Shown: piece by piece, positions 4,020 to 28,325 of the stretch
How the letters are laid out: the number at the start of each line of letters is the position of its first letter
Numbering within the stretch: position 1 is the stretch's first letter
Source of the DNA: Candidatus Culexmicrobium cathedralense
GTDB lineage: Archaea > Thermoproteota > Methanomethylicia > Culexarchaeales > Culexmicrobiaceae
NCBI GenBank assembly: GCA_025061115.1
Contig: JANZKC010000003.1
Location: 199,170 to 263,169, forward strand
DNA: 64,000 bases
Direction of reading: 5' to 3'
The notes under the pieces: generated by a model
Told to the model about the DNA's origin: nothing
Database searches by the model: none
What the model saw: only the letters and a program-made list of their open reading frames with translations
Position numbers and translations under genes: made by a program

Positions 4020-4442
4020 CGCAATACAATATCTCCAACTATCCTATTATAACTACTTACGACTACTTATTAATGGTGTATTAAAACAATTTTATTGTAA
4101 TATACTTTATCGTCAATCGTCGTGATACATTGCTAGATCATTGATTTTAGCAAATATTCATTTAATTATTTCCATTAATTATTTACTGCTTCTTTACACT
4201 AAATTTGAATTATATGTGTAATAATTAGACCATTTTTCTATTACGAAAATAATGCAATATTAAAGATATATTTAGATTAAAATTGAATTAGACGATGTAA
4301 TTAATCTAAGGATTTTTCATTTTCTTACCATCGAAATTTTCTGGTTATTTGACGGTGTGATTTTAGCTGCATTTTTATGTTTGTCAGGTTGAAGGTTGTT
4401 GGTTTTATTCAAGTATTGTCGATTCGTTGTTGTTGATGTTAT

Positions 4443-4458: not shown

Positions 4459-4532
4459 TAAACGCTCCATTAAATAATTATTTTGTTAAATTATTCGTAA
4501 AGAGTATATACTATTTTTATGAATAGTTATTA

Positions 4533-12266: not shown

Positions 12267-12300
12267 TCAACATTAATCACTTCATAAAGCCATATCTGTT

Positions 12301-14160
12301 GTGAAATTGCAACTAATATGCTTTAATAAGTATGGATGCATACTGATTTTAGGTGCCACTATGGCTGATTCATATAAAATTTTGAATGAGGAATTTTCAA
12401 TTCAAGAGCTGATGGATTTTGTAAGCGATTTAAGCCGCTTTCATAGAATTCAAGGCTGCGATGAAATAGAGAAAGCTGGGAACTATATAAAATCCATTAT
12501 TGAAAGCGAGGACGTACTTGATGTGGAGTTGAAGCACTATAGTTACGGTATTAGGCATGGTTCTTTTGGACCAGTTGTAGGCTGGTGGATTAAGGGCGGA
12601 GAGCTCAGATTGATCAAGCCCCGAGAAGAACTTTTACACAGCTTTAAAGATTCAAGGACGCTTGTAGCAGCTCATAGCCCTGGCGGAATAGTTGAAGCTG
12701 AAGTTTTGCATATTGGAGACGGAGAAGACCCATCAAGCTACAATAAAATCGATGTTGAAGGCAAAATCATTCTAGCTTGCGGCTATGCATACATTGTTTA
12801 TAGGCAAGCCACACAGAACGGTGCAGCTGGAGTTTTAATTTATAGGAAAACAGGAATAGAAGATGCAGTTCCATATATGGGTTTATTTCTAACTCCGGAG
12901 GAAGCCAAGGAATCAAAAGCTCCAGCACTAGTAATATCCAAAAAAACAGCTAATAAACTTATTAAGCTAATTGAAAAGGGCGAAAAGCCAGTAGTAAGAA
13001 TCACCGTAAATGCTGGTTATAGAGAGGAAGCTTGGATACCAGTAGTTACAGCTAAGATAGGGGAAAGTGAAAGCGAAATTCACCTATGTGCTCACTACTG
13101 TCACCCGGCTGGAACAGTCAATGATAATGTAAGTGGAGCTGCCTCTCTAATGGAATTAGCTCTAAGCTTAGCCAGGGCAATCAAGAATAAACGATTAGAT
13201 AAGCCAGATAAACACTCAATAAGATTTCTATGGGTCCCAGAATTCGCGGGGACATTAGCGTATATGATTAATGATAAACCACAAGTGGTTTTCAGCGTAA
13301 ATCTAGATATGATTGGAGAAGAACAGCAGCTAGCAGGATCAACCATAAACTTCGTAAAGCCTCCTCCAAGGCTATTCCACCCATATGAAGCCGTAATTTA
13401 TTACAACTTGAAGAACGCACTATCACTAAGTGAAAGCTTCTCATCCCCAAGAAAAGCTCTAGCCTACCGATTCGACATCGTACCATACGAATTTGGAAGC
13501 GACCATGATGTATATGTGCAATTCAATGTGCCATCAATAATGATTAATCAGTGGCCAGATAAGTTCTATCATAGCGATCAAGATACGATAGACAAATTCG
13601 ACCCACAGCTAGCTAAAATAATCTCAACCTCAATTGGCTCCGCAATTTACATGATATCAAAAACAGGACATGAAAAGGAAATTCAAAAACTAGTTAAAAG
13701 CTACTTCTACAATTACATTGGACTTGAACTATCTGCAACCCATAAGGAGCTATTCGAAGCAAGGTACAAATACATAATCAAATCAATTGGAAGCAAAGTA
13801 TTAAGCGAAGTACCAGACAAGACAATCAAAAAGCTGATGGAAGCAATTGAAGAAGAATGCGAGAGCCAAAGTGATAAAGAGAAATACGTATATAAAGAGC
13901 CAATAGGCGTATTGTCCTCAAGGCTCATTTATAGGCGAATGGGCTGGGAAGGCTATAAAGCACTAAAGGAAATTACTGAAAAGGAAAAATTCATGAGAAC
14001 AGTCATCAGCAGCTTAATTCCACTATACATGCGGAATCCAATTAGCATAAGTAGACTCGCAAAAATGATAGAAGAGGATTACGGAGTTAAAGTGAAATTG
14101 GATTTACTGAGAAAAACAATTGAACTATTAATCAAAGCTAAAATAATCGAGAAAAAATAA
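12301..14160 (+). CDS. M28-family aminopeptidase-like protein (DUF4910, PA domain)
   Basis: AHYCHP, NDNVSG, WVPE, NLDMIG, SDH and YHS..DT motifs; the true start is probably MADSY. Confidence 0.85.
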   Translation: MKLQLICFNKYGCILILGATMADSYKILNEEFSIQELMDFVSDLSRFHRIQGCDEIEKAGNYIKSIIESEDVLDVELKHYSYGIRHGSFGPVVGWWIKGGELRLIKPREELLHSFKDSRTLVAAHSPGGIVEAEVLHIGDGEDPSSYNKIDVEGKIILACGYAYIVYRQATQNGAAGVLIYRKTGIEDAVPYMGLFLTPEEAKESKAPALVISKKTANKLIKLIEKGEKPVVRITVNAGYREEAWIPVVTAKIGESESEIHLCAHYCHPAGTVNDNVSGAASLMELALSLARAIKNKRLDKPDKHSIRFLWVPEFAGTLAYMINDKPQVVFSVNLDMIGEEQQLAGSTINFVKPPPRLFHPYEAVIYYNLKNALSLSESFSSPRKALAYRFDIVPYEFGSDHDVYVQFNVPSIMINQWPDKFYHSDQDTIDKFDPQLAKIISTSIGSAIYMISKTGHEKEIQKLVKSYFYNYIGLELSATHKELFEARYKYIIKSIGSKVLSEVPDKTIKKLMEAIEEECESQSDKEKYVYKEPIGVLSSRLIYRRMGWEGYKALKEITEKEKFMRTVISSLIPLYMRNPISISRLAKMIEEDYGVKVKLDLLRKTIELLIKAKIIEKK

Positions 14161-14202
14161 TCATAATTATATTATTTTTATTTATTATAAGAGGATTAGA
14201 AG

Positions 14203-14382
14203 CTAATTATGAAAGTGCTTTTGAGCTGCTTTAACGAATGCATGCGCCAATTCCTCTTTATAGCCAACTAATATAACCTGTTTAATTGTTGTGCCACCAT
14301 CAATATGGCGCTTCAATTCAAATACCATGACATTAGCAGCATTATCTGGAGACACACCACCCACACCAGTACCTAATCCTGG
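14203..14382 (-). pseudogene. 3' half of macrodomain gene split by the integrated element
   Basis: Translates PGLGTGVGGVSPDNAANVMVFELKRHIDGGTTIKQVILVGYKEELAHAFVKAAQKHFHN*, the missing C-terminus of the ORF at 25874. Confidence 0.92.
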
Positions 14383-14406
14383 TTAGAGTAAAATCGAATT
14401 GTACCT
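14373..14406. repeat. Left attachment site: 10-bp direct repeat plus inverted arm
   Basis: CTAATCCTGG (14373-14382) recurs at 25493-25502; TCGAATTGTACCT (14394-14406) is the exact reverse complement of 25473-25485. Confidence 0.9.
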
Positions 14407-14452
14407 TAATTTTTAAATACTCGATTTTGAGTAAAATATTTGGGGAATTATA

Positions 14453-15661
14453 ATGCTTGAAATCCCCCTAAACCCATACTACCTCAAGTGGATTGAATCT
14501 GATGAAAGCCTTAGGAAGCTCGCAACTCGAGTCTACTTGAAAAGCGGAAGCACAAGCACAGTAAGAACATACCTCGACGGAGTAATAATGCTCAGCAAAT
14601 TTCTGGAAATGAAGCCAAGTGAAATTTTAAAGGCAAAACTAGACTGGGAAGGCATATTGAATGAATTTATAGCCTACCTAATTTATGAGCGCAAAACTGC
14701 AAGGGGAACAGCGCTTAACTACTTCAGCGGAGTAAAAAAGTGGCTTGAAATCAACTTACCCAAAGAAGACTGGTACTCAATAGACTGGCGAAGAATAGAC
14801 AAGCCAAGCAAATGGAAAGTAGAGCGAGACAGAATACCAACAAGAGAAGACTTAAGATTAATATTAAAAGCAGCAAATCCAGCCTGGAGAGCAATAATAA
14901 CATTAGCAGTCTCAAGCGGCTTAAGACAAGGAACAATCATAAACCTCAAAATAGGAAACATAAAAATCTACGAAAACGGCAAAATCAAACCACTAACAGA
15001 ATATTTGAAGGAAAATAAGCCGCTAAGCAGCGAAGCCCTGGGCATTATTTTGGTGGAACCTGAAATCGCAAAGGAAAGGCCAGAAAAATACCTAACATTC
15101 TGCACAGCCGAAGCCCTAAAACACATCCTAATGTACCTTAAAATCAGGATGAAGCGAGGAGAAAAACTAAGTGAAGATACACTGTTATTCGTCAACAGAA
15201 GCAAGCGCAAAATAAATCCACACACATTCAAATACAACTGGCTAGACATCCTCGCAAGAGTAGATAAAAACGTGAAGCACCGCAAATGGCACATCTACCG
15301 ATTCCACACACTCAGAAAATACTTCTCAACATGGTGCAAACTTTCAGGTGTAGATCCCTGGGTAGTAGAAGCCTGGATGGGCCACAAAGCAGGGATCCAC
15401 CAAGTCTACTTCCTATCAGGCATAGAAGACCTAGAAAACCCAGTCCTAATAGCCAGGCTAGCCGAAGAATACAGAAAAGCAGTTCCAACACTCACCATAT
15501 TCACAGAAGAAGAAAAAATAAGAGAGCTGGAAAAGCGGCTTGAAGAGGAAATAAAAGCAAGAGACGAAATCATAAAAATGCTCAAAGAAGAACTAAAGCA
15601 ACTGGAAGCTAAAATAGCTGAAATTGAAAGAAAAGCCAGAAACTCGAGCTATATGTGGTAA
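14453..15661 (+). CDS. int: Tyrosine recombinase/integrase
   Basis: SSGLR (R), FHTLRK (HxxR), MGH and QVY catalytic residues; C-terminal coiled coil; 70 bp from the left att. Confidence 0.93.
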   Translation: MLEIPLNPYYLKWIESDESLRKLATRVYLKSGSTSTVRTYLDGVIMLSKFLEMKPSEILKAKLDWEGILNEFIAYLIYERKTARGTALNYFSGVKKWLEINLPKEDWYSIDWRRIDKPSKWKVERDRIPTREDLRLILKAANPAWRAIITLAVSSGLRQGTIINLKIGNIKIYENGKIKPLTEYLKENKPLSSEALGIILVEPEIAKERPEKYLTFCTAEALKHILMYLKIRMKRGEKLSEDTLLFVNRSKRKINPHTFKYNWLDILARVDKNVKHRKWHIYRFHTLRKYFSTWCKLSGVDPWVVEAWMGHKAGIHQVYFLSGIEDLENPVLIARLAEEYRKAVPTLTIFTEEEKIRELEKRLEEEIKARDEIIKMLKEELKQLEAKIAEIERKARNSSYMW

Positions 15662-15896
15662 CTAATTGTCCAAAACTATATAACTAATTATTCAGTGAAT
15701 GCAGATAATGATGCAAATTACATGAATATATTTTATAGCATTAATGCTTATGGTGGCTTTAAAAGCAATAGCGACATTGAATCTTAAAATACCTAACAAT
15801 AAATTTTTTACCGCCGCCGTAATAGGGCGATGACCTCATGTTTTTGTATAAAAAGTGAAGTAAAGAATTTATACGGTAAGTCACACAAAGTTGAAT

Positions 15897-16008
15897 TGGG
15901 CCGGGAGGGTCTCCCGCTAAGGCAGGGGCGGGGGTCATCGGCTGTTAACCCTTTCATCACAGTTCAGTTAGCTCAGCATTCGTCCTTTGCTTCGGGCCCT
16001 CCGGCCCA
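15897..16008 (-). ncRNA. GC-rich structured small RNA, possibly HgcC-like
   Basis: Terminal stem TGGGCCGG/CCGGCCCA extended by GAGGG/CCCTC; internal UGUGAUGA and GAUGA motifs; TATA-like TTATAT near 16041-16046 on the minus strand; GC island in AT-rich DNA. Confidence 0.55.
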
Positions 16009-16376
16009 TTACCATCATTAATTTAAAATTAATGGGAAGGATATAAGTTTGCATTGACTATTTTATCGCAAGGTGATGATGTGAAACTTCCATCAAAATT
16101 TACATTTCACATGAAAAATTTAAAGACTAAAAATTTAAATAGGCATCATCAGTATGGAGGTTGGATTCTCCTCCAACCTTATAAAAGGAACTACAATCCA
16201 TTCAAGCCCAACCCAATTTGCCAGCACAACCCTTTTTGTTGCCCTAACTGTTGCAGGTGGATCTCTAAAGAGAATTAGTAAATTTTAGTACTCTAGGCAT
16301 CAAAAAGTTTTACATTATTATATCCAAAGAAAAATGAGGAGTTTAACTGGTCTTCACATCAACTTGCTGGAGAGTT

Positions 16377-16649
16377 TTAGCATTCTTTCTGTTCCTTCTT
16401 CTTCAATTCAGCGCACTCCATTATTATTTTCTTGATGCTTGGAAGGTATGGGCAATGTTTAGTTAAAACATCAAAAAAGCACTCTCTAACGCTGATGTAT
16501 ATGTCCCACAAGATCTCTTTCCTTACCACTTCAAGAGGTATTTTGTATACTTCCGCCATTTTAAGCACTTCAGCGATGTAGTCTAGCATTTGAAGCTGCG
16601 CTTGAAGCCAAATTACATCAATAACCTTTTCCTTGAGAAACATAAACAT
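16377..16649 (-). CDS. Hypothetical protein
   Basis: 90-aa ORF with a GGTGA RBS, divergent from the RHH gene. Confidence 0.6.
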   Translation of the reverse strand: MFMFLKEKVIDVIWLQAQLQMLDYIAEVLKMAEVYKIPLEVVRKEILWDIYISVRECFFDVLTKHCPYLPSIKKIIMECAELKKKEQKEC

Positions 16650-16727
16650 TATAATATCACCATATTAGAATATGAGAATAATTATATTTAAATATTATCA
16701 TACAGTAATATTGGAGTAGTGATAGTT

Positions 16728-16877
16728 ATGGCTAAGATAAAGACTTGCTTCACAATCGATGAGGATCTATACAAAAAGTTCCAAATCTTCGTGATAATGA
16801 AGCATGGAACTAAGAAGAAAATAAGCTTCGAAGTAGAAAACGCATTAAGAGAATACCTGGAAAAACATGAAAAATAA
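16728..16877 (+). CDS. Ribbon-helix-helix (CopG-like) regulator, not in ORF track
   Basis: MAKIKTCFTIDEDLYKKFQIFVIMKHGTKKKISFEVENALREYLEKHEK* (49 aa); classic RHH pattern. Confidence 0.8.
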   Translation: MAKIKTCFTIDEDLYKKFQIFVIMKHGTKKKISFEVENALREYLEKHEK

Positions 16878-17385
16878 GTATAGTAATGGTGAAATCATGA
16901 GGGAGGATGATCAAAAACAGTACTTTCCAATCATTAAAGAATGGTTAGAGAAGAATAATTATAAAGCTATAATTACAGGAGATGCGCATCATCTAGTAAT
17001 ACCAATTTGGGATATATTCCCCATAAGATCCCATGTAATCCCAGACGTTATAGGATATAAGGAAAATCCATTTCCACACCTCACTATAGTAGAAGTGGAA
17101 ACAAAATTGGATAAAATATTTGAGGCCATAGGAAAGTGCATGATTTGGAAGACAATAGCAAGCATAGTTTTTCTAGCCTATCCTGAAGGATCAATCAGAA
17201 AGTTACCTGCACTTGAAAAATTAGGCCTAGGACTAATCAGTGTATCCGAGAATGAAGTAAGAGAAATAATAAGCATTCTACCTAAAGAATCATTAGATGC
17301 TCATAAAATCTTAGAGTTACATCCCCTTTATCACAATAAAGAGCAAGAAATTATTAGACGGATCAAGAATATAATTGAATTATAG
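16867..17385 (+). CDS. PD-(D/E)XK nuclease-fold protein
   Basis: IPDVIG...IVEVE...AIG and FLAYP...LGLGLI patterns typical of restriction-endonuclease-like folds. Confidence 0.6.
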   Translation: MKNKYSNGEIMREDDQKQYFPIIKEWLEKNNYKAIITGDAHHLVIPIWDIFPIRSHVIPDVIGYKENPFPHLTIVEVETKLDKIFEAIGKCMIWKTIASIVFLAYPEGSIRKLPALEKLGLGLISVSENEVREIISILPKESLDAHKILELHPLYHNKEQEIIRRIKNIIEL

Positions 17386-17405
17386 CTGAAATTTTATTTT
17401 GAGAT

Positions 17406-18113
17406 TTATTCTTCAATCATTAGTCTGTAGAATGTTATGTATTTTTTCGGGGCTCTAGGGAATCTAATGTACATTTCGCGAAGCTCATTTTTTGCCAGGA
17501 CTTCAGCTATCTTGGTTTTCTTTATCACTGGATCATCCCAGTATTTTTTTACTATCGCTTTTAACTGCCTCTTTGCAGATTCTAACTCTTTCCTTGTCAA
17601 TTCATTTAGACTTTTATCGTAAAGCCAGGCTGCATAGTAGTGAATTATGCTTGGCTTGTGGTAAAGCTTACCTTCCTTCTTTAGTCTAGCCATTGCGTAG
17701 CGAGTTCTAAGGCTTACTTGTAGCTTTTCATAGCTGCTGAACCATGACTTGATGAAAAGCCATAATTCACGTAGAAGTGGATCTCCTATTTCAGGCTCTC
17801 TGGCAAAGTCGATTAAGACTTTGTAGTTTTCCATTATTGTTCTGAGCCTATTTAATGCTTCAATTGGACTTGAAGCTCTATAAAATCTCGTGAGATCGTA
17901 CATAATGATCACATCAATATTGGATGTTTTAACGTACTCAAGCAATTTTTTGAAAATTGGTCTCTCCAGGGGATCTACGCTGCCACTAATATTTTCCTCG
18001 AAAATCTCGACCACTTCATAACCTCTGGATTGCGCGTAATTTAGCACTACTTGAAGCTGACTCTTGGGAGTTTGATCTTCGGTACTAACTCTAGCATAGA
18101 TGACTGCCTTCAA
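17406..18113 (-). CDS. Serine recombinase (resolvase/invertase family)
   Basis: YARVSTEDQ catalytic Ser motif; E..SG..D...RP; DLTRFYR. Confidence 0.92.
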   Translation of the reverse strand: MKAVIYARVSTEDQTPKSQLQVVLNYAQSRGYEVVEIFEENISGSVDPLERPIFKKLLEYVKTSNIDVIIMYDLTRFYRASSPIEALNRLRTIMENYKVLIDFAREPEIGDPLLRELWLFIKSWFSSYEKLQVSLRTRYAMARLKKEGKLYHKPSIIHYYAAWLYDKSLNELTRKELESAKRQLKAIVKKYWDDPVIKKTKIAEVLAKNELREMYIRFPRAPKKYITFYRLMIEE

Positions 18114-18256
18114 GCATGTCCACCATTTACAATAGTACCCTATTAGAATAAAAATATTTCTAAAGTCTTACTAAAGAAATAAAATCATGATTTTACTTAA
18201 GGGGACCCTAAAGAAAGCTGGAACTTCGCTTTCGCTCCATATATTGGGGGATAGCT

Positions 18257-19162
18257 ATGAGCAAGCGCAGGGAAGATCGCTTAGGCATAGTCTTAACATT
18301 ATTTTTGTTGATAATTATTTCAAGCGTTTTAGTTTACATTTCAGCTAAATTTGCACCTAAAATTGCTGAGTGGGTTAAAACGTGGACTTTCCCATTTGGT
18401 AATGGACAATTAGTCATCACGGGGGTATTTAGAATACTGAGCGCTGATGGAAAAGTAATTGCTCAAGGGCCTATTGAAAGTATAAGTCAAGTAGAGTATG
18501 AGGGGAAGCCGGCAGCCACTTACCAGGCCACCTTTACGGTGCTCATGAATGCAGGAAACATAGACCCAAACACTGTTCAAATTTCAGTTAAATTCTTTAT
18601 GCTGTCGACTAAAGGGTTGGAAAGGAACTTACACATCGAAAGCAAGCAGATATCATTAAAATGGAATGAAGATGGAACTTACAGCGGGTCGATTAGCTTC
18701 ACATATGAGTACATCGTTAAAGATGCAGTTGAAGACATATTAACTGTAGATGGCATAGCATTGGATCAAGACTACCTGCTAGGCTTAACCCATCTATACC
18801 AATTCACCGTCACAGCAATGACAACTGATGGAAAACAGCTGAAAGCCGAAAAGCAACTAAAACACGAAGTAGCTTACAACGTAATAGCATATAAGCCCTT
18901 CCTAGACTTAGAAGTACTCTACGACTTCAAAATAACTCAAGAACCAACATTAGAAACGGAAACAACTACAACTACGTCTAGCAGTGGTGGAGGCGGTGGA
19001 GGATCTACTGGAACATTCGACTATAAAGCAATTAGCTATATTAAACCCTTAAGTGAAGTCCAAATGCAACAAAAACTCAAAACAGCAGGTATATTAACAT
19101 TAGTGATAATCGCACTGATCATAGCAGTAACACTTGTAATGAGGAGCTACTCCAGAAGATAA
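18257..19162 (+). CDS. Surface protein with N- and C-terminal TM helices
   Basis: Two terminal TM segments, beta-rich ectodomain, TTTTTSSSGGGGGG linker. Confidence 0.75.
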   Translation: MSKRREDRLGIVLTLFLLIIISSVLVYISAKFAPKIAEWVKTWTFPFGNGQLVITGVFRILSADGKVIAQGPIESISQVEYEGKPAATYQATFTVLMNAGNIDPNTVQISVKFFMLSTKGLERNLHIESKQISLKWNEDGTYSGSISFTYEYIVKDAVEDILTVDGIALDQDYLLGLTHLYQFTVTAMTTDGKQLKAEKQLKHEVAYNVIAYKPFLDLEVLYDFKITQEPTLETETTTTTSSSGGGGGGSTGTFDYKAISYIKPLSEVQMQQKLKTAGILTLVIIALIIAVTLVMRSYSRR

Positions 19163-19420
19163 AGCTAGGAAATATGCTAGACGTCTAGAAAACGACAGGC
19201 AATAAATCAATTAAAACTCAAACTAAGTTATTCGTACAAAGTACAAATATACAATAGCCACTAAAATTAGAAGTCATAAAGCGTTATTTTCATAAAAATA
19301 CCTATCATCATTTTAATAAAGGCTGCAGTGTGTGGTGCTTCAAGGGTGGAGGGGCATATCACGAATTAGCTTAAACCACTTATAATAGCTTAAGATCAAC
19401 CAGTCAGACTGAGTCATATT

Positions 19421-19813
19421 TCACAGCGTGTTCAATTCAGAGTCTTTAAAAGCAAAAAAGCATTCTTCACAAAGAAGGTAGAATTTACCTTCTATTTCTC
19501 CATGACATAGATCACATAATAATGATTTTCTACTTGAATTTGTAGCCAATTGAAATTGCCAGTCTGGAAGATAAACAAAGTTGAATCTGCTTACCTTCAT
19601 AATCTTTATTTTGAGCTTCTTCCAACCTTTTAAATCTCTTACTTTAACTCCTTTTTCTAGGTCTCTTATTCTTTTAATGTAAGTGTTGTAGTTAAACTTG
19701 CTTTTCAATCTCCTTCTTAAGCGCAAGTATAAATCGTAAAGTAGGATAGGGCGGCCAACCATTTTTAATTCATCAATAATGTGCCCATATGTAAGCTCGG
19801 TCAAGCGGGTCAA
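19421..19813 (-). CDS. wHTH plus C-terminal Zn-finger protein (putative repressor)
   Basis: wHTH-like N-terminus; CDLC...CEEC; divergent from the replication operon. Confidence 0.6.
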   Translation of the reverse strand: MTRLTELTYGHIIDELKMVGRPILLYDLYLRLRRRLKSKFNYNTYIKRIRDLEKGVKVRDLKGWKKLKIKIMKVSRFNFVYLPDWQFQLATNSSRKSLLCDLCHGEIEGKFYLLCEECFFAFKDSELNTL

Positions 19814-19997
19814 AATAATTCACCATAATAGAAAGTTAACTTTCTATTATTTAAGCTTATGGTTCAAAGGTCATCATCAAAAAAGGATAAAATTTCTTGA
19901 AATATGTTCATACAATGAAAATTTTCAAATTATTACTTCAATATGCACTATTATTTTCAATCTGCTTATTTTTCGCTTCTATTTATGGGTGAGTAAG

Positions 19998-20189
19998 ATG
20001 CGTAATTTAGGCAATTTAGAGGTAATTCGAATAAGTAAGGTGTCAAGCAACGATTCCGTCCCACTCATATATTTGCCGAAGAAAGCTGTCGAAAGGATTG
20101 GACTGAGAAAAGGCGACTACGTTGTTCTTGCAACTGATGGTAGGAGGCTGATCATCGAAAAGCTGGAATTAAACAGTCAAGGAGGCTGA
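19998..20189 (+). CDS. AbrB/SpoVT-family DNA-binding protein
   Basis: IYLPK...ERIGLRKGDYV...DG.RLIIEK; true start is the ATG at 19998 inside track ORF 19779..20189. Confidence 0.85.
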   Translation: MRNLGNLEVIRISKVSSNDSVPLIYLPKKAVERIGLRKGDYVVLATDGRRLIIEKLELNSQGG

Positions 20190-20195
20190 AGTGCC

Positions 20196-20306
20196 ATGCG
20201 CATGAAAGATAGGAAGATAATCACCATCAAAATTGACGATCTGAAGGCATTGAAAGAGCATGTTCGAAAGTGTTTGAAGCTTATTGAGAAGCTTGAGGTG
20301 ATGTAA
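20196..20306 (+). CDS. Small hypothetical protein (36 aa)
   Basis: MRMKDRKIITIKIDDLKALKEHVRKCLKLIEKLEVM*; GGAGG upstream; fills the operon gap. Confidence 0.45.
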   Translation: MRMKDRKIITIKIDDLKALKEHVRKCLKLIEKLEVM

Positions 20307-20307
20307 A

Positions 20308-20682
20308 GTGAGTACTAGCTTAAATGTTGAAAAGCTCAAGTTAGAGGCCCAGATCCATGAACTTAGGCAAATAATTTCAATACTTAACAATAGGCTGCAA
20401 GCGCTTGAAAAAGCTTTGAAGTCAAGTGGAGTTGAAATTGTCACTTTGAAAGTTGAGCCGCCAATTGATGTTGAGAGCAGGCTTTTAAAATGGCTATGTC
20501 GCCGAATTTTAGATCCTCATAAAGAGAAGCATGGAATCCAGTATAAACTACGATTTATCGCTGGGACAAACCTCGTTCAAGAGATCGTACTTTGGATTCC
20601 TCAAGGTAAGCAGGAACACCTCGACGAGATCAAGACCTGTTTGAAATGGGTTTGTAAAAAAGCTGCAAGTGCGGGGTGTTGA
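20308..20682 (+). CDS. Coiled-coil hypothetical protein
   Basis: N-terminal heptad repeat; GAGGTG RBS; operonic. Confidence 0.65.
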   Translation: MSTSLNVEKLKLEAQIHELRQIISILNNRLQALEKALKSSGVEIVTLKVEPPIDVESRLLKWLCRRILDPHKEKHGIQYKLRFIAGTNLVQEIVLWIPQGKQEHLDEIKTCLKWVCKKAASAGC

Positions 20683-20688
20683 AGAGGA

Positions 20689-22902
20689 ATGGGAAGGTGG
20701 AGTCCATTAAATAAGCCCAGCCCAGAAGAGGCCAGGCAATTCCTAGCTGAAAAAGGCTTCTTAATCGAAGTAAAATCTTTAAGTAATTCATTTAACGTAT
20801 ATAAGGTATTGCTGCACGGCCCAGATGGGAATCTCCATGAACAAAAGTGTGAGCACTTATCAGGCTATTCTCCAACAGCTATCATTAACTTTCTTAAAAG
20901 CTATAATATTAATGAAAATGACCTCCCTGATTTTTTAGCAGCCATATCCTCAATCATTGAAGCAATTTTACCTCAAAAGTTTAGGTTTGTGCTTGATGAT
21001 GGCACAATAATTGAGCCTGAAGCCAGTGATGGCTTAGCAGTCAACCCCGCAATGTTGTTTGTAAGACACGAAAATTTCACGATTGTAGGTGAATTAACTT
21101 ACCTTAAAAGTAAGGTGAAGATTCCTGATAAGCGAAGAGGTTTCAAGGAAATTATAGGTTATGAGCCTTTCCTAGTAATTGCGAGGTATGAAGGATCAGA
21201 AATTAAGAGGGATTTTAAGCCTTTGAGAAAGCTGGAATTTATTGATGTTGGAGACATCCCAGTTAGGTTAGATTGGCGCGGGAGGGCTTCAAGTCCTCTT
21301 AAAACCGTTATGAAGCTTGAAACAATTGGCGATTTCATGAAAGGTGCTATTTCTCCCCACTTCAAGGAGTTATTTGATGAGGCTCTAAGTAACATAAAGA
21401 AATTCATTGACTTTTGGTGGGATCAGCGCCTATATACTTTAACTGCAGTCTATTGTATGTCCACGTACTTTGCCGACTTCTTCACAGCATTTCCATTTCT
21501 CTACTTTTATGGTCCTCCAGGAACTGGAAAAACTAGGGCTGGCAAGACAATTACTTTAATGAGTAGAAGAGGCTTCATAGTAACTGATCCTACTGAAGCA
21601 TCCATTTACAGAACTGCTGAAGCATTCAAGCCTACATTCCTCTTCGATGAATCCATTATGCGCAAAGAGCTTTGGAAGCTGGTTAGAGCTGCATTTAAAG
21701 CTGGGGCTCAAATTCCGAGAGTAACTAAAGTTAGGGGTGAATACTTTGAATTATCATTTTTTGATCCATACTCACCGTACATTTTTGCAAGCACTGAAAC
21801 TCCTGAAGAGTTAGGTGGAAGTGAAGCAGACTTAACTAGAACTATCATAATAGTTATGAAATTTGGTCGAGATCCAAGTGGCAGAGATCCTGAACCTAAC
21901 GACTTTACAAGATTCAGAGAGAAAATGTACTTGGCAAGACTCACTCGAGCCAATGAAATCATTGAAGCAATAGAGAAAGTTAAATGTTTAGCAAAAACAC
22001 TTACAGGAAGAGAAAGAGAGGTTTGGCTTCCACTTCTATCTTTAGCGAGAGTTATTGATGAAAAAGTTTTCAATGAAATACTTAACCTCGCTGCAGAGCT
22101 TTTTGAGGCAAAGAAGCTAGAGCTGTATAGAGATGAAAGGCTGATAATTGAAGCACTAGAGCGGTTAATGATGGATGAAGCTCAAAAGAGCTTAGGAGAT
22201 GATCTTTTACTGCGTTTTTATGCGAAAGATCTCAATGCAATACTGAAGGACATTCTAGTTTTTGAGAGGCAAGAATTAACTGAAAAACAGTTTGAGCGAT
22301 TTTGGAGCACCAGGAGAATAGGTAAAATACTTAGTAGAATGGGATTCAAGGGCCGCCTATATAAGGGAATAAAAAGATATACTTTAACTAGAGCAGAGCT
22401 CGAGGACCTAAAGCAAAAGTACTTTGCCTTGAGCTCCAGTGGAAATGAGGGTGGATTTGGTGGGTTTGGTGTATTTTCTGGAGAAAGGGGTACCTCTGAG
22501 AAAAACCCACCCCAGCATGAAGCAGAACCATCAGAAATAATGATGGAGGGTGGATTTTCTGAAACCCTACCCCTTTTCCGAAAAAACCCACCAAATCCAC
22601 CAAACCCACCCTTCATTCATGGACAAATATCAAAAAGCATTCCTCACCACATCCTCACACTAAAGAAGATTAAGCGCGGCGAGATCGATATTCCTGAAGA
22701 AGCGCTTCAAAGAGTTTACACTTATATTGAGAGGAATCTCCCACTTCAAAGAGACTTAATTAAGTTTATAGAGCTTAATGAGCTGCCAAAAGAGGCGCTT
22801 ACAGTTCTCATCATGAAAGGCAGGGTAATTGAAAGAAGACTTCCAAGCGGTGAGGTGAGGCTTCTTCCATCCTACGTTTTGGGAGGATGGAGGTGTGGGT
22901 GA
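20689..22902 (+). CDS. Replication helicase-like P-loop ATPase (DUF3631/SF3-like Rep)
   Basis: FPFLYFYGPPGTGKT Walker A, PTEASIYR, PTFLFDE Walker B, R..EVW.PL; C-terminal wHTH-like region. Confidence 0.75.
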   Translation: MGRWSPLNKPSPEEARQFLAEKGFLIEVKSLSNSFNVYKVLLHGPDGNLHEQKCEHLSGYSPTAIINFLKSYNINENDLPDFLAAISSIIEAILPQKFRFVLDDGTIIEPEASDGLAVNPAMLFVRHENFTIVGELTYLKSKVKIPDKRRGFKEIIGYEPFLVIARYEGSEIKRDFKPLRKLEFIDVGDIPVRLDWRGRASSPLKTVMKLETIGDFMKGAISPHFKELFDEALSNIKKFIDFWWDQRLYTLTAVYCMSTYFADFFTAFPFLYFYGPPGTGKTRAGKTITLMSRRGFIVTDPTEASIYRTAEAFKPTFLFDESIMRKELWKLVRAAFKAGAQIPRVTKVRGEYFELSFFDPYSPYIFASTETPEELGGSEADLTRTIIIVMKFGRDPSGRDPEPNDFTRFREKMYLARLTRANEIIEAIEKVKCLAKTLTGREREVWLPLLSLARVIDEKVFNEILNLAAELFEAKKLELYRDERLIIEALERLMMDEAQKSLGDDLLLRFYAKDLNAILKDILVFERQELTEKQFERFWSTRRIGKILSRMGFKGRLYKGIKRYTLTRAELEDLKQKYFALSSSGNEGGFGGFGVFSGERGTSEKNPPQHEAEPSEIMMEGGFSETLPLFRKNPPNPPNPPFIHGQISKSIPHHILTLKKIKRGEIDIPEEALQRVYTYIERNLPLQRDLIKFIELNELPKEALTVLIMKGRVIERRLPSGEVRLLPSYVLGGWRCG
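22445..22616. repeat. About 70-bp imperfect inverted repeat with GGTGGRTTT iteron-like units (putative origin)
   Basis: 22445-22512 is nearly the reverse complement of 22548-22616; encodes the GGFGGFG and NPPNPPNPP peptides. Confidence 0.75.
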
Positions 22903-23031
22903 TGAGAACTAAAAGTGTCATAGTATTCTGCTGGCATGGTTACAGAAATCCTCACTTTTGCACTGAGTGCCTGTGGAGGGAGATTTGCAGCATTTCCAAT
23001 CCTACATTGACCTCTAGTGAGGTGAAGGTTT

Positions 23032-23304
23032 GTGCGTGAGCTAATTAACAAGCAGGGAATACTGGAGGTTGATGGAGACATATATCAGTGCACTATTGTT
23101 GGAGCGCAATTTCGAGCTAAAAGGGAAAACATCCTTTACATCGACGAGGAAGCGTACTGCAAGCTTCTCACAGGTTGTGAGAAGCCGAACATAGTCATTC
23201 TCCTAGTCAAGTTGAACTGCAAAAGTGCTGTCTGTGAGATCATGCAGAGTGGTAGTATTTGCATTAGAGAATCTAGAAGGAGAGATCAAAAATGCCGAGT
23301 GTGA
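23032..23304 (+). CDS. Hypothetical protein
   Basis: GAGGTGA RBS upstream; operonic. Confidence 0.55.
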   Translation: MRELINKQGILEVDGDIYQCTIVGAQFRAKRENILYIDEEAYCKLLTGCEKPNIVILLVKLNCKSAVCEIMQSGSICIRESRRRDQKCRV

Positions 23305-23432
23305 AAGTTAGACTTTCAACTCTCGTTAAGCTCAAGCAACTGAAAAAGAAGTTGAAGACTGCAAGCAGCCTAGATGACGTGATAGTCAGACTGATTCACT
23401 TTTACGAGGAGAATAGGGGAGTGAGGAGTTGA
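23292..23432 (+). CDS. Small RHH-like DNA-binding protein, not in ORF track
   Basis: MPSVKVRLSTLVKLKQLKKKLKTASSLDDVIVRLIHFYEENRGVRS*; S.DDVI.RLI RHH pattern; overlaps both neighbours. Confidence 0.7.
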   Translation: MPSVKVRLSTLVKLKQLKKKLKTASSLDDVIVRLIHFYEENRGVRS

Positions 23433-23896
23433 TGCCTGTCGAGCTATTTACATCACCTGAAGAAGTTGCCGAAAGAATTGTTCAGCGAGTTTGGGATGAA
23501 GGATGGTTTCTAATAATACCAACGAACTTTAAAACCATGACGTTCCTCGAGTGGCTAGAGTACAAGTACTACACTCCAGGAACTAAAGAAAATGCATTCT
23601 ATGAGATCTCGTTGCTTCCGATGATGGCCATAATTAAGCCTAAGCCCCACTTCTACAACTTGTGGTTTAATGAACATGAGGAAGAGCTCATTCCCCTCAT
23701 AAAGAAACACGGCTGCATAATAATTCTAAGAGACTTCCAACCAGCTGGGATGAACCGCGACTATAAGATAACTGGCAAGATCCTCTTAGTCTTCGAGGAT
23801 AGGAATGACATGAGAAACTTCCTTGCAAAAATGATGATCTTTCACTTCATTAAGTTAAAGTTAAGATCTCCCTTTCGAGGTGTAAGTCTTGACTGA
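23429..23896 (+). CDS. Hypothetical protein
   Basis: 155-aa ORF translationally coupled to its neighbours. Confidence 0.7.
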   Translation: MMPVELFTSPEEVAERIVQRVWDEGWFLIIPTNFKTMTFLEWLEYKYYTPGTKENAFYEISLLPMMAIIKPKPHFYNLWFNEHEEELIPLIKKHGCIIILRDFQPAGMNRDYKITGKILLVFEDRNDMRNFLAKMMIFHFIKLKLRSPFRGVSLD

Positions 23897-24539
23897 GAAT
23901 ATCGAGAAGATAAGAAAAGAGTTGGATTCAGTTTTAGTTGAGGCTGTTAGGCCTACAGCTCAGCTCGGAGTTGAAAACCTCATCGCCTGTGAGTTGGCTC
24001 GAGCAGTGTTCAGCAAGCCTCTTGAGAAGATTCGGCACATCTTGGAAGCCTATCTTCTAATTTCAAATGAGAAGAGAAGGGAGTTGCTAGGTATATGTGA
24101 TGATGAACATGAGGAGCTTATAAAAATATATAAGCTGTGCCTAGACTTGCAAAGAACAATATTCATGGAAGATAGATACTGTGAAATGAGAACTGCAGCT
24201 ATACCTTGGAGCTTCACTGCCAAGGAGATTTATAAGTACTTGGACTGGATCGGTAATTTTGTACCATACCATTACCCATTAGTCTCATATTATAAAAAGT
24301 TAGATTATATGAAGAAATTCTACTATGCAAGTAAATTAGGAAATCTAACATGGATGACTGCAAGAGAAGTTCAAACACGCTTCATACAATATGCAATGCC
24401 TAAAGTGATTCGCATAATGCGCTTATTACTCGAGAAGATCGTCACGCCAGAAATCTGGTGGCAATCACTTCAAATCATAAGTGGAAAAGTTAAGGTAAAG
24501 GAGCGAGATCAACGTGCAGCATTACAGAGTGAAGCCTAG
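23889..24539 (+). CDS. Hypothetical helical protein
   Basis: 216-aa ORF overlapping its neighbours. Confidence 0.7.
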   Translation: MTENIEKIRKELDSVLVEAVRPTAQLGVENLIACELARAVFSKPLEKIRHILEAYLLISNEKRRELLGICDDEHEELIKIYKLCLDLQRTIFMEDRYCEMRTAAIPWSFTAKEIYKYLDWIGNFVPYHYPLVSYYKKLDYMKKFYYASKLGNLTWMTAREVQTRFIQYAMPKVIRIMRLLLEKIVTPEIWWQSLQIISGKVKVKERDQRAALQSEA

Positions 24540-25395
24540 CCTCATAGCAGTAAAGTGGCTCAGAGGAATAGAGCATATCAACTTTGGAAGCAAGCCAGTA
24601 GTCTTAATGGCTTTAGGCGTTAGAGGAGCAGGTAAAAGCGCATTCCTAGAAGCAGTAGCAGAGCATTTTTTGGCAAGCGGTCACAGTGTCCTAGACCTGT
24701 TTGGAGCCAGGAGCGGAGAAGGCTTAGCATGGCTTAGGTCACCATGGATACAAGAATTAGACCTCCCAGTACTGCTGATTAAAGGCAGAAATATAGATGT
24801 AACTTGCAGCTGGAACGTGAAAAGCTGGGATAAATTGACTCTCAGCGAATTTGAAAAGTACAGGATCATCATTTCAGCCAGCCCACTCTACATTGACAGG
24901 AACGAGGAGTTCAGAGCAGTAAACCGCATACTCGACATTCTATTCACGAGGTTAGGCTGGAGAAGGTACATTTACATCTTAGTGAGGGAAGCAGCCAACC
25001 TCATTTACTCAAGATTCAAGCATAAGGAAAACCAACTGCTAGCAAAAGCTGAGTGCGTATATTTGATAAGAGAGTCAAGGCATCATGGCTTAGCCATGGG
25101 GCTAGACACTCAGAAATTCACAAGCGTAGACGTCGATTTGCGAATACTGCTTGATTATCTAATAATTAAGACTCAAGGAGCAATAGGCTTACCTAGAGAT
25201 CTATGGTGGGTTTACAGTTGGATAAAGCCAGAGTGGTTGCAGTGGGCTAAGCCTCAGTATTTTGCAATAATAAGTAGGAGGGGAAGTATAGGAATAGGTC
25301 TTTTCGAAATGCCGTCATGGCATAAAAGGCCAAGAGAAAACTTATTGAAAGCACTAGGAATTAAAGTGGAAAACAGACAAAATAACCTGAAATAG
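24514..25395 (+). CDS. FtsK/HerA-superfamily-like ATPase (packaging or transfer type)
   Basis: Walker A GVRGAGKS, variant Walker B ILVREA, RESRH motif, DTQ sensor-like motif. Confidence 0.7.
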   Translation: MQHYRVKPSLIAVKWLRGIEHINFGSKPVVLMALGVRGAGKSAFLEAVAEHFLASGHSVLDLFGARSGEGLAWLRSPWIQELDLPVLLIKGRNIDVTCSWNVKSWDKLTLSEFEKYRIIISASPLYIDRNEEFRAVNRILDILFTRLGWRRYIYILVREAANLIYSRFKHKENQLLAKAECVYLIRESRHHGLAMGLDTQKFTSVDVDLRILLDYLIIKTQGAIGLPRDLWWVYSWIKPEWLQWAKPQYFAIISRRGSIGIGLFEMPSWHKRPRENLLKALGIKVENRQNNLK

Positions 25396-25463
25396 CCTTA
25401 TATTCAGTAAACTACTCCTCTATACTGCAAATCCCAAATTCCCTTTACTTTTGTAAAAGAAAT

Positions 25464-25874
25464 TCAGAGTTTAGGTACAATTCGAGTTGGTTCTAATCCT
25501 GGAAAGGCTATGCTTCTTAATCCTAAGCTTTCTGCACATTTCAATGCAGCTCTCATTGCCAATCTAACATTTTCAATACCTATTTTCATGGCAGGCCTCT
25601 CCATAGTTGGAGCGTGAATAACATATCTTGCTTTAAGCTTTCCAGCTCCAGTAAAAATAGCCTCACCAACCGGAATAGGAGCATGCTTACGCGCTTCCAA
25701 TTCAATTTCAACTCCACCCACACGCTTAATAGCTCCAGCAACTCCTCCACCCATTATCATGTAGCTATTAGCTGGATTAACAATAGCTTCAACATCAACC
25801 TTAGTTATGTCGCCAAGCATAACCTTAATTTCAACACCCCTACACTTACATTCATAAAGCAGCATCCAACACAC
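25464..25874 (-). pseudogene. Macrodomain (ADP-ribose-binding/hydrolase) gene, 5' part, interrupted by the element
   Basis: GDIT, AIVNPAN, GGGVAGAI, VIHAPT and SIAFPGL motifs, followed by 9 element-derived residues EPTRIVPKL*. Confidence 0.92.
25473..25502. repeat. Right attachment site
   Basis: AGGTACAATTCGA inverted arm plus CTAATCCTGG direct repeat. Confidence 0.9.
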
Positions 25875-25989
25875 CCAAAATTCGAGAGAAAATAAAAATT
25901 ATTAAGCATTACATGTAACCAAGTACATCAATAATATAATTACAACCTACCTATAATACTCAAAAATTATTTGGCTACAGTGCGCTTAT

Positions 25990-26055
25990 ATGCCTATAGA
26001 CGTGTTCGAAACTCTTAAAGCACTGGTTAAAATCAATTCCGTAAATCAACCATAA
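25990..26055 (+). pseudogene. Possible M20 peptidase N-terminal remnant
   Basis: MPIDVFETLKALVKINSVNQP* resembles the L..LV.I.S.N start of M20/ArgE enzymes. Confidence 0.35.
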
Positions 26056-26193
26056 AAAGGCTAAAAGACAACAATCGAAATCCCCAACTACATAAAACAC
26101 GTTAAAAATACGATCTCCAAACCGAAATTCTCGAGAAAAAATCTACTACTCCGCTTTTAGAAGGTTTATTGAAGGATGTGATTGATTTGGCAT

Positions 26194-26322
26194 TTTGCAA
26201 CGAGATTTCCAGCAAAACCTAACAATATAGGGTTGACTACTGTTAAGTTAATTGAAAAGCGAGAGAATATTTTGATTGTGGATGTACTTGATGCGGAGAA
26301 TGGAAATTGCCGCATTGAGTGA
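26194..26322 (+). pseudogene. TrmO/TsaA tRNA methyltransferase remnant
   Basis: FATRFPAKPNNIGLTTVKLIEKRENILIVDVLDAENG matches the FATRSP.RPN.IGL..V.L...LDA.DG motif; no intact 5' end. Confidence 0.65.
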
Positions 26323-26538
26323 GAAAACATGTTAAAGAGCATAAGCACTTTAAGCATCGCAATTACGAGGATATCTTGAATCTTGTTGGGAGATATTATA
26401 ATTCATAGAGCAGATTCTACTTTAATATTAAAAATAAAAGTGTTAAATTCAATTGGACAAAACGTTCTAATAATTTGAAATATTCAATTAAAAATAATAT
26501 TTAAATTATGTGTCATTATTTTAATTAATGGGATAAAT

Positions 26539-27390
26539 ATGAAGTTTGAGAAGTATCTTTCAATTGCTATTGTAATTTCATTTATTGCGCTTAGTCTCTA
26601 TAGTTGGATTTCGCGTTATGGATTAGTTTGGCCTCCTAATTTTTGGATGCTTATGATTGAGCCTGAAAACGTCTTTCTTGCCATTACATTCTTTATTGTT
26701 AGCTTAACGGCAATTGCACTATGCATTTTGAAGTTTAACTTAACAAGTTCAATAGTAATTGTTGGATGGGGCTTTTACCTACCCGTAATATGGAATATTA
26801 CGATACCCATGTTCATAGCTTTCATGACTGTCATAGGCTTGTTTTACTCGCCTTGGTTACCATTAGAGAGTACTCAAGTAGGAAATCTACTTATAAACGG
26901 TGTCATAGTGTTTCCATACAGGCCATTAAACAATTTGTTGCCATCAATTGGGTTTTCACTAATATTCGTTGGCCTCGCCATGTACTTCACATCACTATAT
27001 CAGCTTTTGACATATAAGATCAAAAACAACAAACTTCTAACAAAAGGATTATACTCGATAGTTAGACATCCCCAGTATTTAGGTATAATTTTGTGGACGT
27101 TGGGCGTAGCAATAGTTGGACGTAGGCCCATTAACTACATTGCATGGGCAACACTTACTTACACATATTTAGTTCTAGCTGAATTTGAGGATTGGAACTT
27201 AGAAAAGAAATTTGGAGAAGTCTTTGAGCGTTACGCGGAGAAGACTAGCTTTATTATTCCATTACCAGTTAGAATTAGCATAAAAAATAGGAAAATAAAG
27301 CTAATGCTTTATACAGCCATCTATATTTTAATGCTTATAATGATGATTTACGTGTTTTCATCAATGGCACTTATGTATCGTTTCACATAA
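26539..27390 (+). CDS. Isoprenylcysteine carboxyl methyltransferase/PEMT-family membrane protein
   Basis: L.TKGLYSIVRHPQYLG, ED..L...FG; multiple TMs. Confidence 0.85.
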   Translation: MKFEKYLSIAIVISFIALSLYSWISRYGLVWPPNFWMLMIEPENVFLAITFFIVSLTAIALCILKFNLTSSIVIVGWGFYLPVIWNITIPMFIAFMTVIGLFYSPWLPLESTQVGNLLINGVIVFPYRPLNNLLPSIGFSLIFVGLAMYFTSLYQLLTYKIKNNKLLTKGLYSIVRHPQYLGIILWTLGVAIVGRRPINYIAWATLTYTYLVLAEFEDWNLEKKFGEVFERYAEKTSFIIPLPVRISIKNRKIKLMLYTAIYILMLIMMIYVFSSMALMYRFT

Positions 27391-27437
27391 CCTCAAATCT
27401 TAGATTTTAAACCACTATCAAAATCCTTTAATGTTCA

Positions 27438-28325
27438 ATGATTTTACAGTTATTCAAGGTGATTTTAATGGCTGAGCGCAAAGTCCTTCTTCATGAAATG
27501 ACTCGAAGCGCCTTTGAAGAGTGGCTTCAAAGCGAGAAGAGGCCAGTTGCCTTGATCGCGGTAGGGTCGATTGAGCAGCATGGACCGCACTTGCCATTAG
27601 GCACAGACACCATCTGGGCTGTTAGCGTTTGTGAAGAAATTGCTAGGAGAACGAACTCAATAGTTGTTCAACCATGCTGGCCTGGATTCTCCCCACATCA
27701 TATGGAGTTTAAGGGGACAATAACCTTCTCGGCTGAAACTCTCTTGAGAATATTGCTTGAAACAATCGGCTCTCTAGCTAAGCATGGTATTAGGCGCTTC
27801 ATCATAGTCAATGGTCATGGAGGCAACAATGAAATAGTAGCTTTAGCAGCTCGTCTAGCTAAAAGGAAATTTAGGGTTTATGTAGCAATACCCAGAGGCC
27901 CAACGACAACTAAAACAGCCAAGAAGTATAGGGATAGAGCTTTAAAGTACTTGGAAGTTCACTCAGGAGCAAGGGAAACTGGAAGCATGTTAATAATACG
28001 TCCAGACCTAGTTGAGATGCAGCGCGTTGAAGATTGGCAGCCGACAACAAAGCTTGAACCTGAGCTTGAAGAGCTTATGAATCCTGAAAGGGAGGATAGA
28101 GAAGTAGCAGAGCAAGTTTTCTGGGCTTCAATACCAATAAATACGCATGAATTCACTTCGTCAGGCATATATGCTTTGACTCATCCAAAGGACGCCGACT
28201 TGGAGGATGCTAAAAAGCGAAGGGAAGAATTCATAGAATTCGTAGTAAAATTCATTAATTTATGGAAGAAGATACCGCTGGAAGAGCGGGAAGAGAAATT
28301 GAAGAAGCAGCCGACAATTTACTAG
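27438..28325 (+). CDS. Creatininase-family amidohydrolase
   Basis: GSIEQHGPHLPLGTD, SPHH, NGHGGN and HSG..ET motifs; probable start MAERK. Confidence 0.92.
   Translation: MILQLFKVILMAERKVLLHEMTRSAFEEWLQSEKRPVALIAVGSIEQHGPHLPLGTDTIWAVSVCEEIARRTNSIVVQPCWPGFSPHHMEFKGTITFSAETLLRILLETIGSLAKHGIRRFIIVNGHGGNNEIVALAARLAKRKFRVYVAIPRGPTTTKTAKKYRDRALKYLEVHSGARETGSMLIIRPDLVEMQRVEDWQPTTKLEPELEELMNPEREDREVAEQVFWASIPINTHEFTSSGIYALTHPKDADLEDAKKRREEFIEFVVKFINLWKKIPLEEREEKLKKQPTIY

Follow-up and report, generated by a model that had tools for sequence, protein, structure and literature searches.

An integrated element divides the macrodomain gene of Candidatus Culexmicrobium cathedralense at a 10-bp core

The hydrothermal-vent archaeon Candidatus Culexmicrobium cathedralense has a single macrodomain gene, and in the genome analysed here this gene is cut in two by an insert of 11,110 base pairs (bp). 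The insertion lies in a 64,000-nucleotide (nt) stretch of contig JANZKC010000003.1 (positions 199,170 to 263,169 of the forward strand; hereafter the window, whose own numbering is used throughout), within a 1.98-Mb metagenome-assembled genome (MAG) with an estimated contamination of 7.65%. The insert spans 14383-25492, resembles its flanks in G+C content and is bounded by a perfect 10-bp direct repeat, with an intact tyrosine integrase gene at one end. Most likely, this arrangement arose by ordinary conservative site-specific integration of a mobile element into the macrodomain gene by the element's own tyrosine integrase. The empty site, joined exactly at the repeat, occurs in contigs of public metagenomes, and the two closest integrases with defined sites likewise cut protein-coding genes in mid-frame, each a different one.

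The divided gene and the ends of the element

The features that define the insertion, including its attachment (att) sites, are as follows.

25464..25874, minus strand: 5′ part of the macrodomain gene, of which 25493-25874 is host sequence, continued by nine codons into the element and then TGA
14203..14382, minus strand: 3′ fragment of the macrodomain gene, with the last 56 codons and the stop; contains the attL copy of the repeat and is in frame with the N-terminal part
14373..14382, plus strand: attL core, 10-bp direct repeat CTAATCCTGG
25493..25502, plus strand: attR core, second copy of the 10-bp repeat CTAATCCTGG
14394..14406, plus strand: left subterminal inverted repeat TCGAATTGTACCT, 13 bp, 11 nt inside attL
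25473..25485, minus strand: right subterminal inverted repeat, 13 bp, 7 nt inside attR
25450..25464, plus strand: right-end motif TTTGTAAAAGAAATT, kept in all related elements
14453..15661, plus strand: tyrosine integrase of 402 amino acids (aa); Pfam PF00589 at 9.8e-13 (over cut-off), PHROG integrase at 7.9e-21

The 5′ fragment matches the Pfam Macro family (PF01661, 2.8e-26) over profile positions 1-102 of 118, the NCBIfam ADP-ribose-binding protein over positions 2-114 of 164 (under the curated cut-off because of the truncation) and a solved 159-residue protein (PDB 2dx6) over residues 3-113, which leaves about a quarter of the macro fold absent. The family match stops at residue 127 (...SIAFPGL), and what follows are the nine element-encoded codons and TGA. 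The 3′ fragment, which has no Pfam match on its own, lies 11.1 kb away on the same strand. Joined by script at the shared 10-mer, the two parts give 552 nt, that is, 183 codons and a stop, with zero internal stops, and the product spans the junction in alignments with 11/11 intact orthologues fetched. Its identity is 71% over 170 aa to the orthologue in related genome G003; over 174 aa, it is 68% to that of G004 and 66% to that of G002. The alignment with the G003 orthologue (185 aa) stops at most a few residues short of either end, and the joined product thus covers the full macro fold, while the gene itself is split in this genome. The element carries no replacement 3′ end for the gene. An earlier reading of the window, made from the sequence alone, is borne out on each of these points: it had placed the end of the family match directly after SIAFPGL and the missing C-terminus, in frame, at 14382-14203, had obtained a 183-aa protein without stops by joining at the 10-bp repeat, where the metagenome contigs described below also join, and had seen no substitute 3′ end within the element. 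ADP-ribose binding or hydrolysis by the restored macrodomain is predicted from homology. The truncated product, of 136 aa, ends before the second Gly-rich loop and is missing the C-terminal portion of the fold, so it is presumably inactive, and we infer that macrodomain activity is lost in cells that carry the insertion.

Both ends of the element are sharply defined. CTAATCCTGG is present exactly twice in the 64-kb window, at the two junctions, against 0.14 occurrences expected, and there is little similarity outside these 10 bp of att identity. The 13-bp inverted repeat is perfect and has only two copies in the window, inverted and one per end; the two are presumed binding sites for the integrase or an accessory factor. 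When the element ends are combined around the core, they form a short palindrome with 5-bp arms and a 6-bp spacer, which looks like the core site of a tyrosine recombinase. A tRNA gene as the integration target was rejected, as the window contains none.

The integrase open reading frame (ORF) begins 70 bp from attL and is whole, not cut by integration. The element thus departs from the SSV-type 'suicidal' arrangement, in which attP lies within the integrase gene. Residues R158, K207, H285, R288, H311 and Y319 are invariant across five relatives and correspond to the R, K, H-x-x-R, H and Y residues that we take to be catalytic. A perfect core at both junctions, a single copy of it in the empty-site contigs and the attP of one relative would together be consistent with site-specific recombination by the integrase at a shared core.

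On the reading that we favour, the attP form of the element would carry the core flanked, at about 10 nt on each side, by the 13-bp inverted repeats, and the integrase would recombine it with the identical 10-bp core within the coding sequence of a dispensable macrodomain gene. After strand exchange within the core, attL and attR would each retain a core copy and an inverted repeat, and the first 127 codons would be parted from the last 56. The reverse reaction, excision, would restore the gene exactly, and cells with the empty, intact gene do occur alongside carriers. Disruption of the gene would then be a by-product of target choice by a clade that uses mid-ORF sites, rather than a switch that serves the host.

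Occupied and empty alleles in public metagenomes

Seven public runs from seven studies (vent and sediment metagenomes, contigs only) hold part of 13400-15400. Four runs (X1-X4) were compared, as assembled contigs, with window positions 12000-28000 at 90% likeness. Contigs cross the integrated junction at attL in X1, X2 and X3 and at attR in X1 and X4, so the occupied form is present in all four runs. In two of the four (X1 and X2), contigs also contain the empty site, as a joint from 14372 to 25493 that skips 11,120 bases and at which 10 letters fit either side. The empty attB that the sequence-only reading had proposed to look for therefore exists, most clearly in X2.

In X2, an independent run, the joint has a depth of 72.5 and is carried by a contig of 3,465 nt that ends 30 nt beyond it. 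This contig differs from the left flank at 7 of 2,373 nt (positions 12085, 12941, 13068, 13686, 13697, 14036 and 14248), being 99.7% identical to the window. Depths in X2 are 64-76 for the flanks, 4-15 for the element and 8.5 for the attL contig; the run thus contains mainly the empty form, at about 9:1. The joint in X1, a run that may represent the source sample, is the weaker case, as it comes from one contig at a depth of 17 with a side of only 20 nt, and sides shorter than 30 can be spurious at the 90% setting; here the element has a depth of about 57 and the flanks of about 65, indicating a mostly occupied population. Other joints (14373 to 25586, and 25646/7 to 25766) have short sides and no shared letters and were taken to be macrodomain genes of other organisms at 90% likeness.

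The only X2 difference within the 3′ gene fragment, at 14248, is synonymous and in third position. Because the empty allele differs from the 3′ fragment by this single change, the insertion is young relative to strain divergence; it is recent and polymorphic. The same observation limits what can be drawn from the state of the two gene halves. The sequence-only reading had named decay of the halves in related strains as one of the signs of a simple one-off insertion, and neither half is decayed; yet with the empty allele only one synonymous change away, their intactness is uninformative on selection. Excision and a mixture of carrier and non-carrier strains fit the contig data equally well.

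Related integrases, their targets and alternative explanations

The class-level search for related integrases covered 62 genomes, 8 of which had a match at 1e-10, and was complemented by genome and metagenome collections. In a maximum-likelihood tree of 35 integrases, the window integrase forms a clade with those of G003, G002 and metagenome contigs L107 and L106 (support 100/100). Three members of this clade have defined sites, those of the window, G003 and G002; no target gene was assigned to L106.

The G003 integrase is 66-68% identical to that of the window, and its element, of about 8.3 kb, has the integrase and the right-end block in common with the window element. It cuts a radical-SAM gene: the 5′ part, which carries the CxxxCxxC motif, ends with ..CEPTIG followed by nine foreign codons, and the 3′ part resumes at ..IGRDHL.. 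Intact radical-SAM orthologues of 281-288 aa align to the two parts at positions 1-126 and 113-274. The direct repeat is 7 bp long, with 12/17 similarity around it, and the inverted repeat, of 11 bp, is set back 15-16 nt from each end. In G002, where the integrase is 49-51% identical, the integrase end of the element abuts the C-terminal domain of an iron-containing alcohol dehydrogenase (Fe-ADH; ADH_Fe_C, 2.9e-39), and the N-terminal part of the same gene is on another contig, adjoining the right end of the element. Here the repeat is 11 bp long, and a 12-bp inverted repeat (11/12 positions matching) is placed 11-12 nt inside the ends. The Fe-ADH 5′ half (contig C111, about 4501-4961) has a frameshift between ..LVREK and GANIICIPTTAGTGSEVT, which is either decay or a MAG assembly error.

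All three integrated elements have subterminal inverted repeats and the same right-end motif, and repeats equivalent to TCGAATTGTACCT are also found in L107. On that contig, with an integrase 55% identical to that of the window, the order is a 216-aa protein, an ATPase, the motif TTTGTAAAAGAAA, a perfect 12-bp inverted repeat, 34 nt, the inverted repeat again and the integrase. Judged by this order, L107 holds an unrecombined attP, free or in a tandem array, and the attP computed for the window element is colinear with it, agreeing at 135/176 positions (77%). The L107 integrase (about 3001-4350) has an insertion of about 75 aa that resembles a winged-helix domain and is missing from the window integrase.

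Other clades use other kinds of site. In a separate clade (support 100/99), integrases lie just downstream of complete genes, namely an MTAP-like phosphorylase (profile positions 1-232 of 233) and an ABC ATPase, and a third member adjoins a permease. More distant clades sit beside tRNA genes, at 10/40 genome loci (11 with any tRNA) and at 3/30 metagenome loci, where the tRNA gene is directly upstream. Targeting in mid-ORF is thus a trait of the window's small integrase clade, seen at three of its three defined sites with a different target gene each time. We dropped the idea of a shared 'Gly-loop' theme, which would fit PGLG of the macrodomain and EPTIG of the radical-SAM protein and does not fit the Fe-ADH site (..YHII|P..).

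The host genome itself (G000) contains two decayed related integrase fragments with stop codons, 65% identical at C2:208633-209073 and 58% identical at C2:113736-113942. They are remnants of earlier elements of the same family, the former abutting a THUMP-domain methyltransferase gene. A pseudogenised integrase of the wider family, in what looks like an old, decayed element, lies in G033 (C10, 8558-11343), flanked by a DNA methyltransferase gene and by the 5′ end of a gene for the gamma subunit of a 2-oxoacid:ferredoxin oxidoreductase.

As for the macrodomain gene, 24 of 40 related genomes have a match, in every case an open frame of 185-227 aa without stops, and none of the 24 is split. In all of them, similarity to the N-terminal part breaks off at residue 126-128. 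The other 16 genomes gave no match, and the gene is therefore dispensable in the group. A partly conserved neighbourhood holds the intact macrodomain gene at three of the four loci examined: in G003 and G002 the gene adjoins a creatininase-family gene (89-90% identical), and in G004 it is near two other shared genes. The 10-bp core shows one to several base differences in the three same-family orthologues compared, so that, in the DNA of the closest orthologues, the attB core lacks the conservation suggested by the sequence-only reading.

Several of these observations would also suit a secondary-site event, in which the cognate attB lies elsewhere or is absent from the host and the macrodomain gene was used by accident through a short shared core. 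Identity is confined to 10 bp with little beyond, the core is imperfect in all three of the compared orthologues, and more distant integrase clades use tRNA genes or sit at the 3′ ends of genes. Against this stand the same junctions in four of four runs, with a perfect repeat, and the position of both closest relatives, which are also in mid-ORF with perfect short repeats matching their own, different cores. We therefore give the accidental use of this site only a small chance.

A regulated gene switch of the 'active lysogeny' type, in which condition-dependent excision turns the macrodomain on before re-integration, as with the comK, skin and hlb-converting prophages, seems to us very unlikely. 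Excision at the core would restore a perfect ORF, as both the joined frame and the empty-site contigs demonstrate; occupied and empty alleles coexist at strongly differing ratios, from mostly occupied in X1 to about 9:1 empty in X2; and neither half shows decay. The intactness of the halves follows from recency rather than selection, given the one synonymous change, and mixed strains account for coexistence equally well, the X2 flanks differing at 7 of 2,373 positions. Moreover, the association of element and target does not recur: 0/24 other macrodomain genes are split, and the nearest integrases are in the unrelated radical-SAM and Fe-ADH genes. The frameshift in the G002 Fe-ADH 5′ half, the dispensability of the macrodomain gene (with no match in 16/40 relatives) and the retention of replication and ATPase genes, which marks the element as something other than a domesticated remnant, also argue against a switch. 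Nothing links excision to a host programme, and a switch is unsupported. Of the two alternatives that the sequence-only reading had left side by side, recent site-specific integration at a protein-coding attB, with truncation of the macrodomain, is supported, whereas the excision switch fails the comparative test; the recurrence of integrase homologues in macrodomain genes, which that reading had offered as a check, was not found.

Neither a transposon nor an assembly artefact is a serious contender, even when the two are taken together. A transposon with terminal inverted repeats and a target-site duplication, to which the inverted repeats near both ends and the short direct repeat around the insert might point, is highly improbable: the inverted repeats do not reach the ends but lie 7-16 nt inside them, the direct repeats differ in length among the related elements (7, 10 and 11 bp), no transposase was found in Pfam, PHROGs or NCBIfam, and one relative has both ends joined around a central core beside the integrase. 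A chimera, with the element misjoined into the macrodomain gene of a MAG with the contamination given above, is refuted by separate contigs from four runs that cross attL or attR.

Some points do weigh against integration by the element's own integrase as we propose it. The family pattern is built on only three defined integration sites, and the short att identity (10 bp) leaves room for a secondary-site event. The contigs of the four runs gave no circular (attP) junction of this element, although contigs cannot show absence. The element also encodes a serine recombinase that could in principle act; we infer that the integrase is the catalyst. Archaeal intragenic att sites in general, as covered in the portion of the review consulted (PMC8371274), come without any recombination assay.

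Gene content of the element and comparison with known systems

Besides the integrase, the element contains the following features.

15834..16235, no strand assigned: non-coding stretch with copies elsewhere in the host genome
16719..16877, plus strand: small ORF of 52 aa with a ribbon-helix-helix look by eye, from its sequence pattern
17406..18113, minus strand: small serine recombinase of the resolvase/invertase type (Pfam Resolvase, 6.3e-25; also PHROGs and NCBIfam)
18257..19162, plus strand: beta-rich protein of 301 aa with hydrophobic N- and C-terminal segments (membrane-anchored)
20689..22902, plus strand: P-loop protein of 737 aa, assigned from an Atlas structure and tblastn; no Pfam match
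23429..24539, plus strand: two conserved ORFs of 155 and 216 aa that accompany the ATPase gene
24514..25395, plus strand: FtsK/HerA-superfamily ATPase of 293 aa, the final gene before attR

Apart from the two recombinases and a sub-threshold MazE/AbrB-type match in Pfam, which gives another small ORF the look of an AbrB-type regulator, the scanned ORFs of the element matched no named family in Pfam, PHROGs or NCBIfam. This includes the 301-aa protein, and there was no capsid family among the ORFs scanned. The 52-aa ORF is a possible regulator or directionality factor. The serine recombinase is cargo, additional to the tyrosine integrase and without a counterpart in the G003 element; multimer resolution, inversion and membership of a nested element are its candidate roles.

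The 737-aa protein is probably a Rep-like replication helicase. Its Atlas model resembles DUF3631/Toprim-primase-associated proteins, and tblastn aligns it with the large ORF of pXZ1, an integrative plasmid of Sulfolobus, at 26% identity across 263 aa; we take that ORF to be a pRN-type Rep. Within the gene for the 737-aa protein, at 22448-22612, is an inverted repeat of 45 nt (82% complementary; perfect over an 18-nt core), whose arms encode GGFGGFG and NPPNPPNPP; this could be a hairpin or an origin-like structure in coding sequence.

The 293-aa ATPase has a packaging-type fold. With its AlphaFold2 model (predicted local distance difference test, pLDDT, 91.2), the best Foldseek match is the B204 packaging ATPase of STIV/STIV2 (E 2e-8, TM 0.58-0.66 depending on the target), with HerA and VirB4/TrwB scoring nearly as high; in a library of viral structures, the matches are the ATPase of the sphaerolipovirus PH1 (E 8e-8), a corticovirus NTPase and A32-like ATPases. 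STIV B204 and PH1-type ATPases, HerA and VirB4 share the fold of the 293-aa protein at an identity of 13-17%, and no capsid gene was recognised here. PDB sequence searches with the ATPase and the 737-aa protein gave P-loop-level matches only (E > 0.05). The ATPase has at least 233 homologues, those with a named source coming from Methanomethylicota and Bathyarchaeia; we aligned it with 22 of 120 homologues among the matches listed. Its counterpart in the G003 element is 87% identical, and homologues of the 155- and 216-aa ORFs are present there too (34% and 60%, respectively), the 216-aa ORF also in L107; the AlphaFold2 model of the 216-aa protein is all-helical and of low confidence (pLDDT 63.6). 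IMG/VR holds one relative of the ATPase only (L105), on a sequence whose ORFs include DUF5131, a C5 methylase and an MCM winged helix, with no capsid or other informative family. In tblastn searches of phage and plasmid collections, the ATPase had zero matches and the integrase distant ones only. The element may be either plasmid-like or proviral.

The non-coding stretch at 15834-16235 has copies in the host genome that are 84% (C3:111028-111290) and 79% (C1:458511-458710) identical, and it draws host-level read depth in run X2. The one match in an Rfam scan of the element falls within it, a sub-threshold hit to sR1, a C/D-box small RNA (15936-15990, minus strand; 22 bits, cut-off 45). Candidate identities for the stretch are a small-RNA gene, captured or shared, and a small repeat element. 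A functional tie between the element and ADP-ribosylation was considered and dropped, because the libraries used revealed no ART-, DarT- or SIR2-like gene; PADLOC was not searched.

Archaeal integrated elements with an intragenic attB are known; what is new locally is a clade that cuts genes mid-way. The elements described in Thaumarchaeota (Krupovic et al. 2019, PMC6563490) resemble that of the window in being archaeal, in their short att sites and protein-coding targets and in having these sites checked against empty ones in relatives. According to the main account of that study, 14 of 68 lie in 3′-distal regions of genes, and the worked example keeps its ORF by means of a stop supplied by the element. 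In contrast, the window element and its two relatives cut mid-gene (here at codon 127 of 183) and supply no replacement, although the supplementary table of that study might hold mid-gene cases. Among classical non-suicidal archaeal tyrosine integrases, as treated in the portion of PMC8371274 consulted, the integrase gene is likewise intact with attP outside it; the more distant relatives of the window integrase also sit by tRNA genes. For archaea, that review names coding-region att sites in the HMG-CoA reductase gene used by virus BJ1, in the efflux gene used by Msmi-Pro1 and in an AsnC gene. In sequence, the window integrase is far from characterised members, its best match among isolated viruses being 31% over a third of the protein (the psiM2 and psiM100 integrase).

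A close parallel in layout is Yucahu-i, an element of Asgard archaea (Atabeyarchaeia; PMC11529989). It measures about 11 kb, begins with a tyrosine integrase gene and has an att of 11 bp; metagenome populations contain chromosomes with and without it, and a circular form was seen. It resembles the window element in size, integrase-first layout, short att and mixed populations, and differs from it in that circular form, none being listed in contigs here, and in its target, which in the sections consulted is not described as a split gene. Gene-interrupting switches, in turn, are exemplified by the Listeria comK prophage, Bacillus skin and Sa3int in hlb of Staphylococcus aureus, as presented in the excerpts drawn upon (PMC7397523, PMC6597384, PMC12607152, PMC8987985). 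In these, too, a host ORF is cut, precise excision restores it, and occupied and empty alleles coexist; they are set apart by a recurrent pairing of element and gene and by condition-dependent excision, whereas the pairing of the window element is non-recurrent. The examples of excisable switches in the part of PMC8987985 used here are bacterial. Our literature search, which did not extend to supplementary tables, found no archaeal case of 'active lysogeny', nor, within the same reach, a study of mobile elements in Methanomethylicia (Verstraetearchaeota).

A further idea, unlikely in our view, is that the clade has specialised in mid-ORF attB sites of dispensable genes and makes them phase-variable in populations, so that ADP-ribose processing would be lost in carriers and regained by cured cells. 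If true, bacterial 'active lysogeny' would gain its first counterpart in archaea, and the differing ratios of occupied to empty sites in the two vent and sediment samples would reflect a phase-variation dynamic. On present evidence, the element reveals no new regulatory principle. What it does provide, for a family of elements in Methanomethylicia not described before, is att sites resolved to the base pair: three pairs from integrated elements and an attP that has not recombined. In this family, one integrase clade inserts mid-gene in protein-coding genes rather than in tRNA genes or at gene ends. As short attP/attB pairs from thermophilic uncultured archaea, these sites are useful substrates for learning how archaeal integrases choose targets other than tRNA genes.

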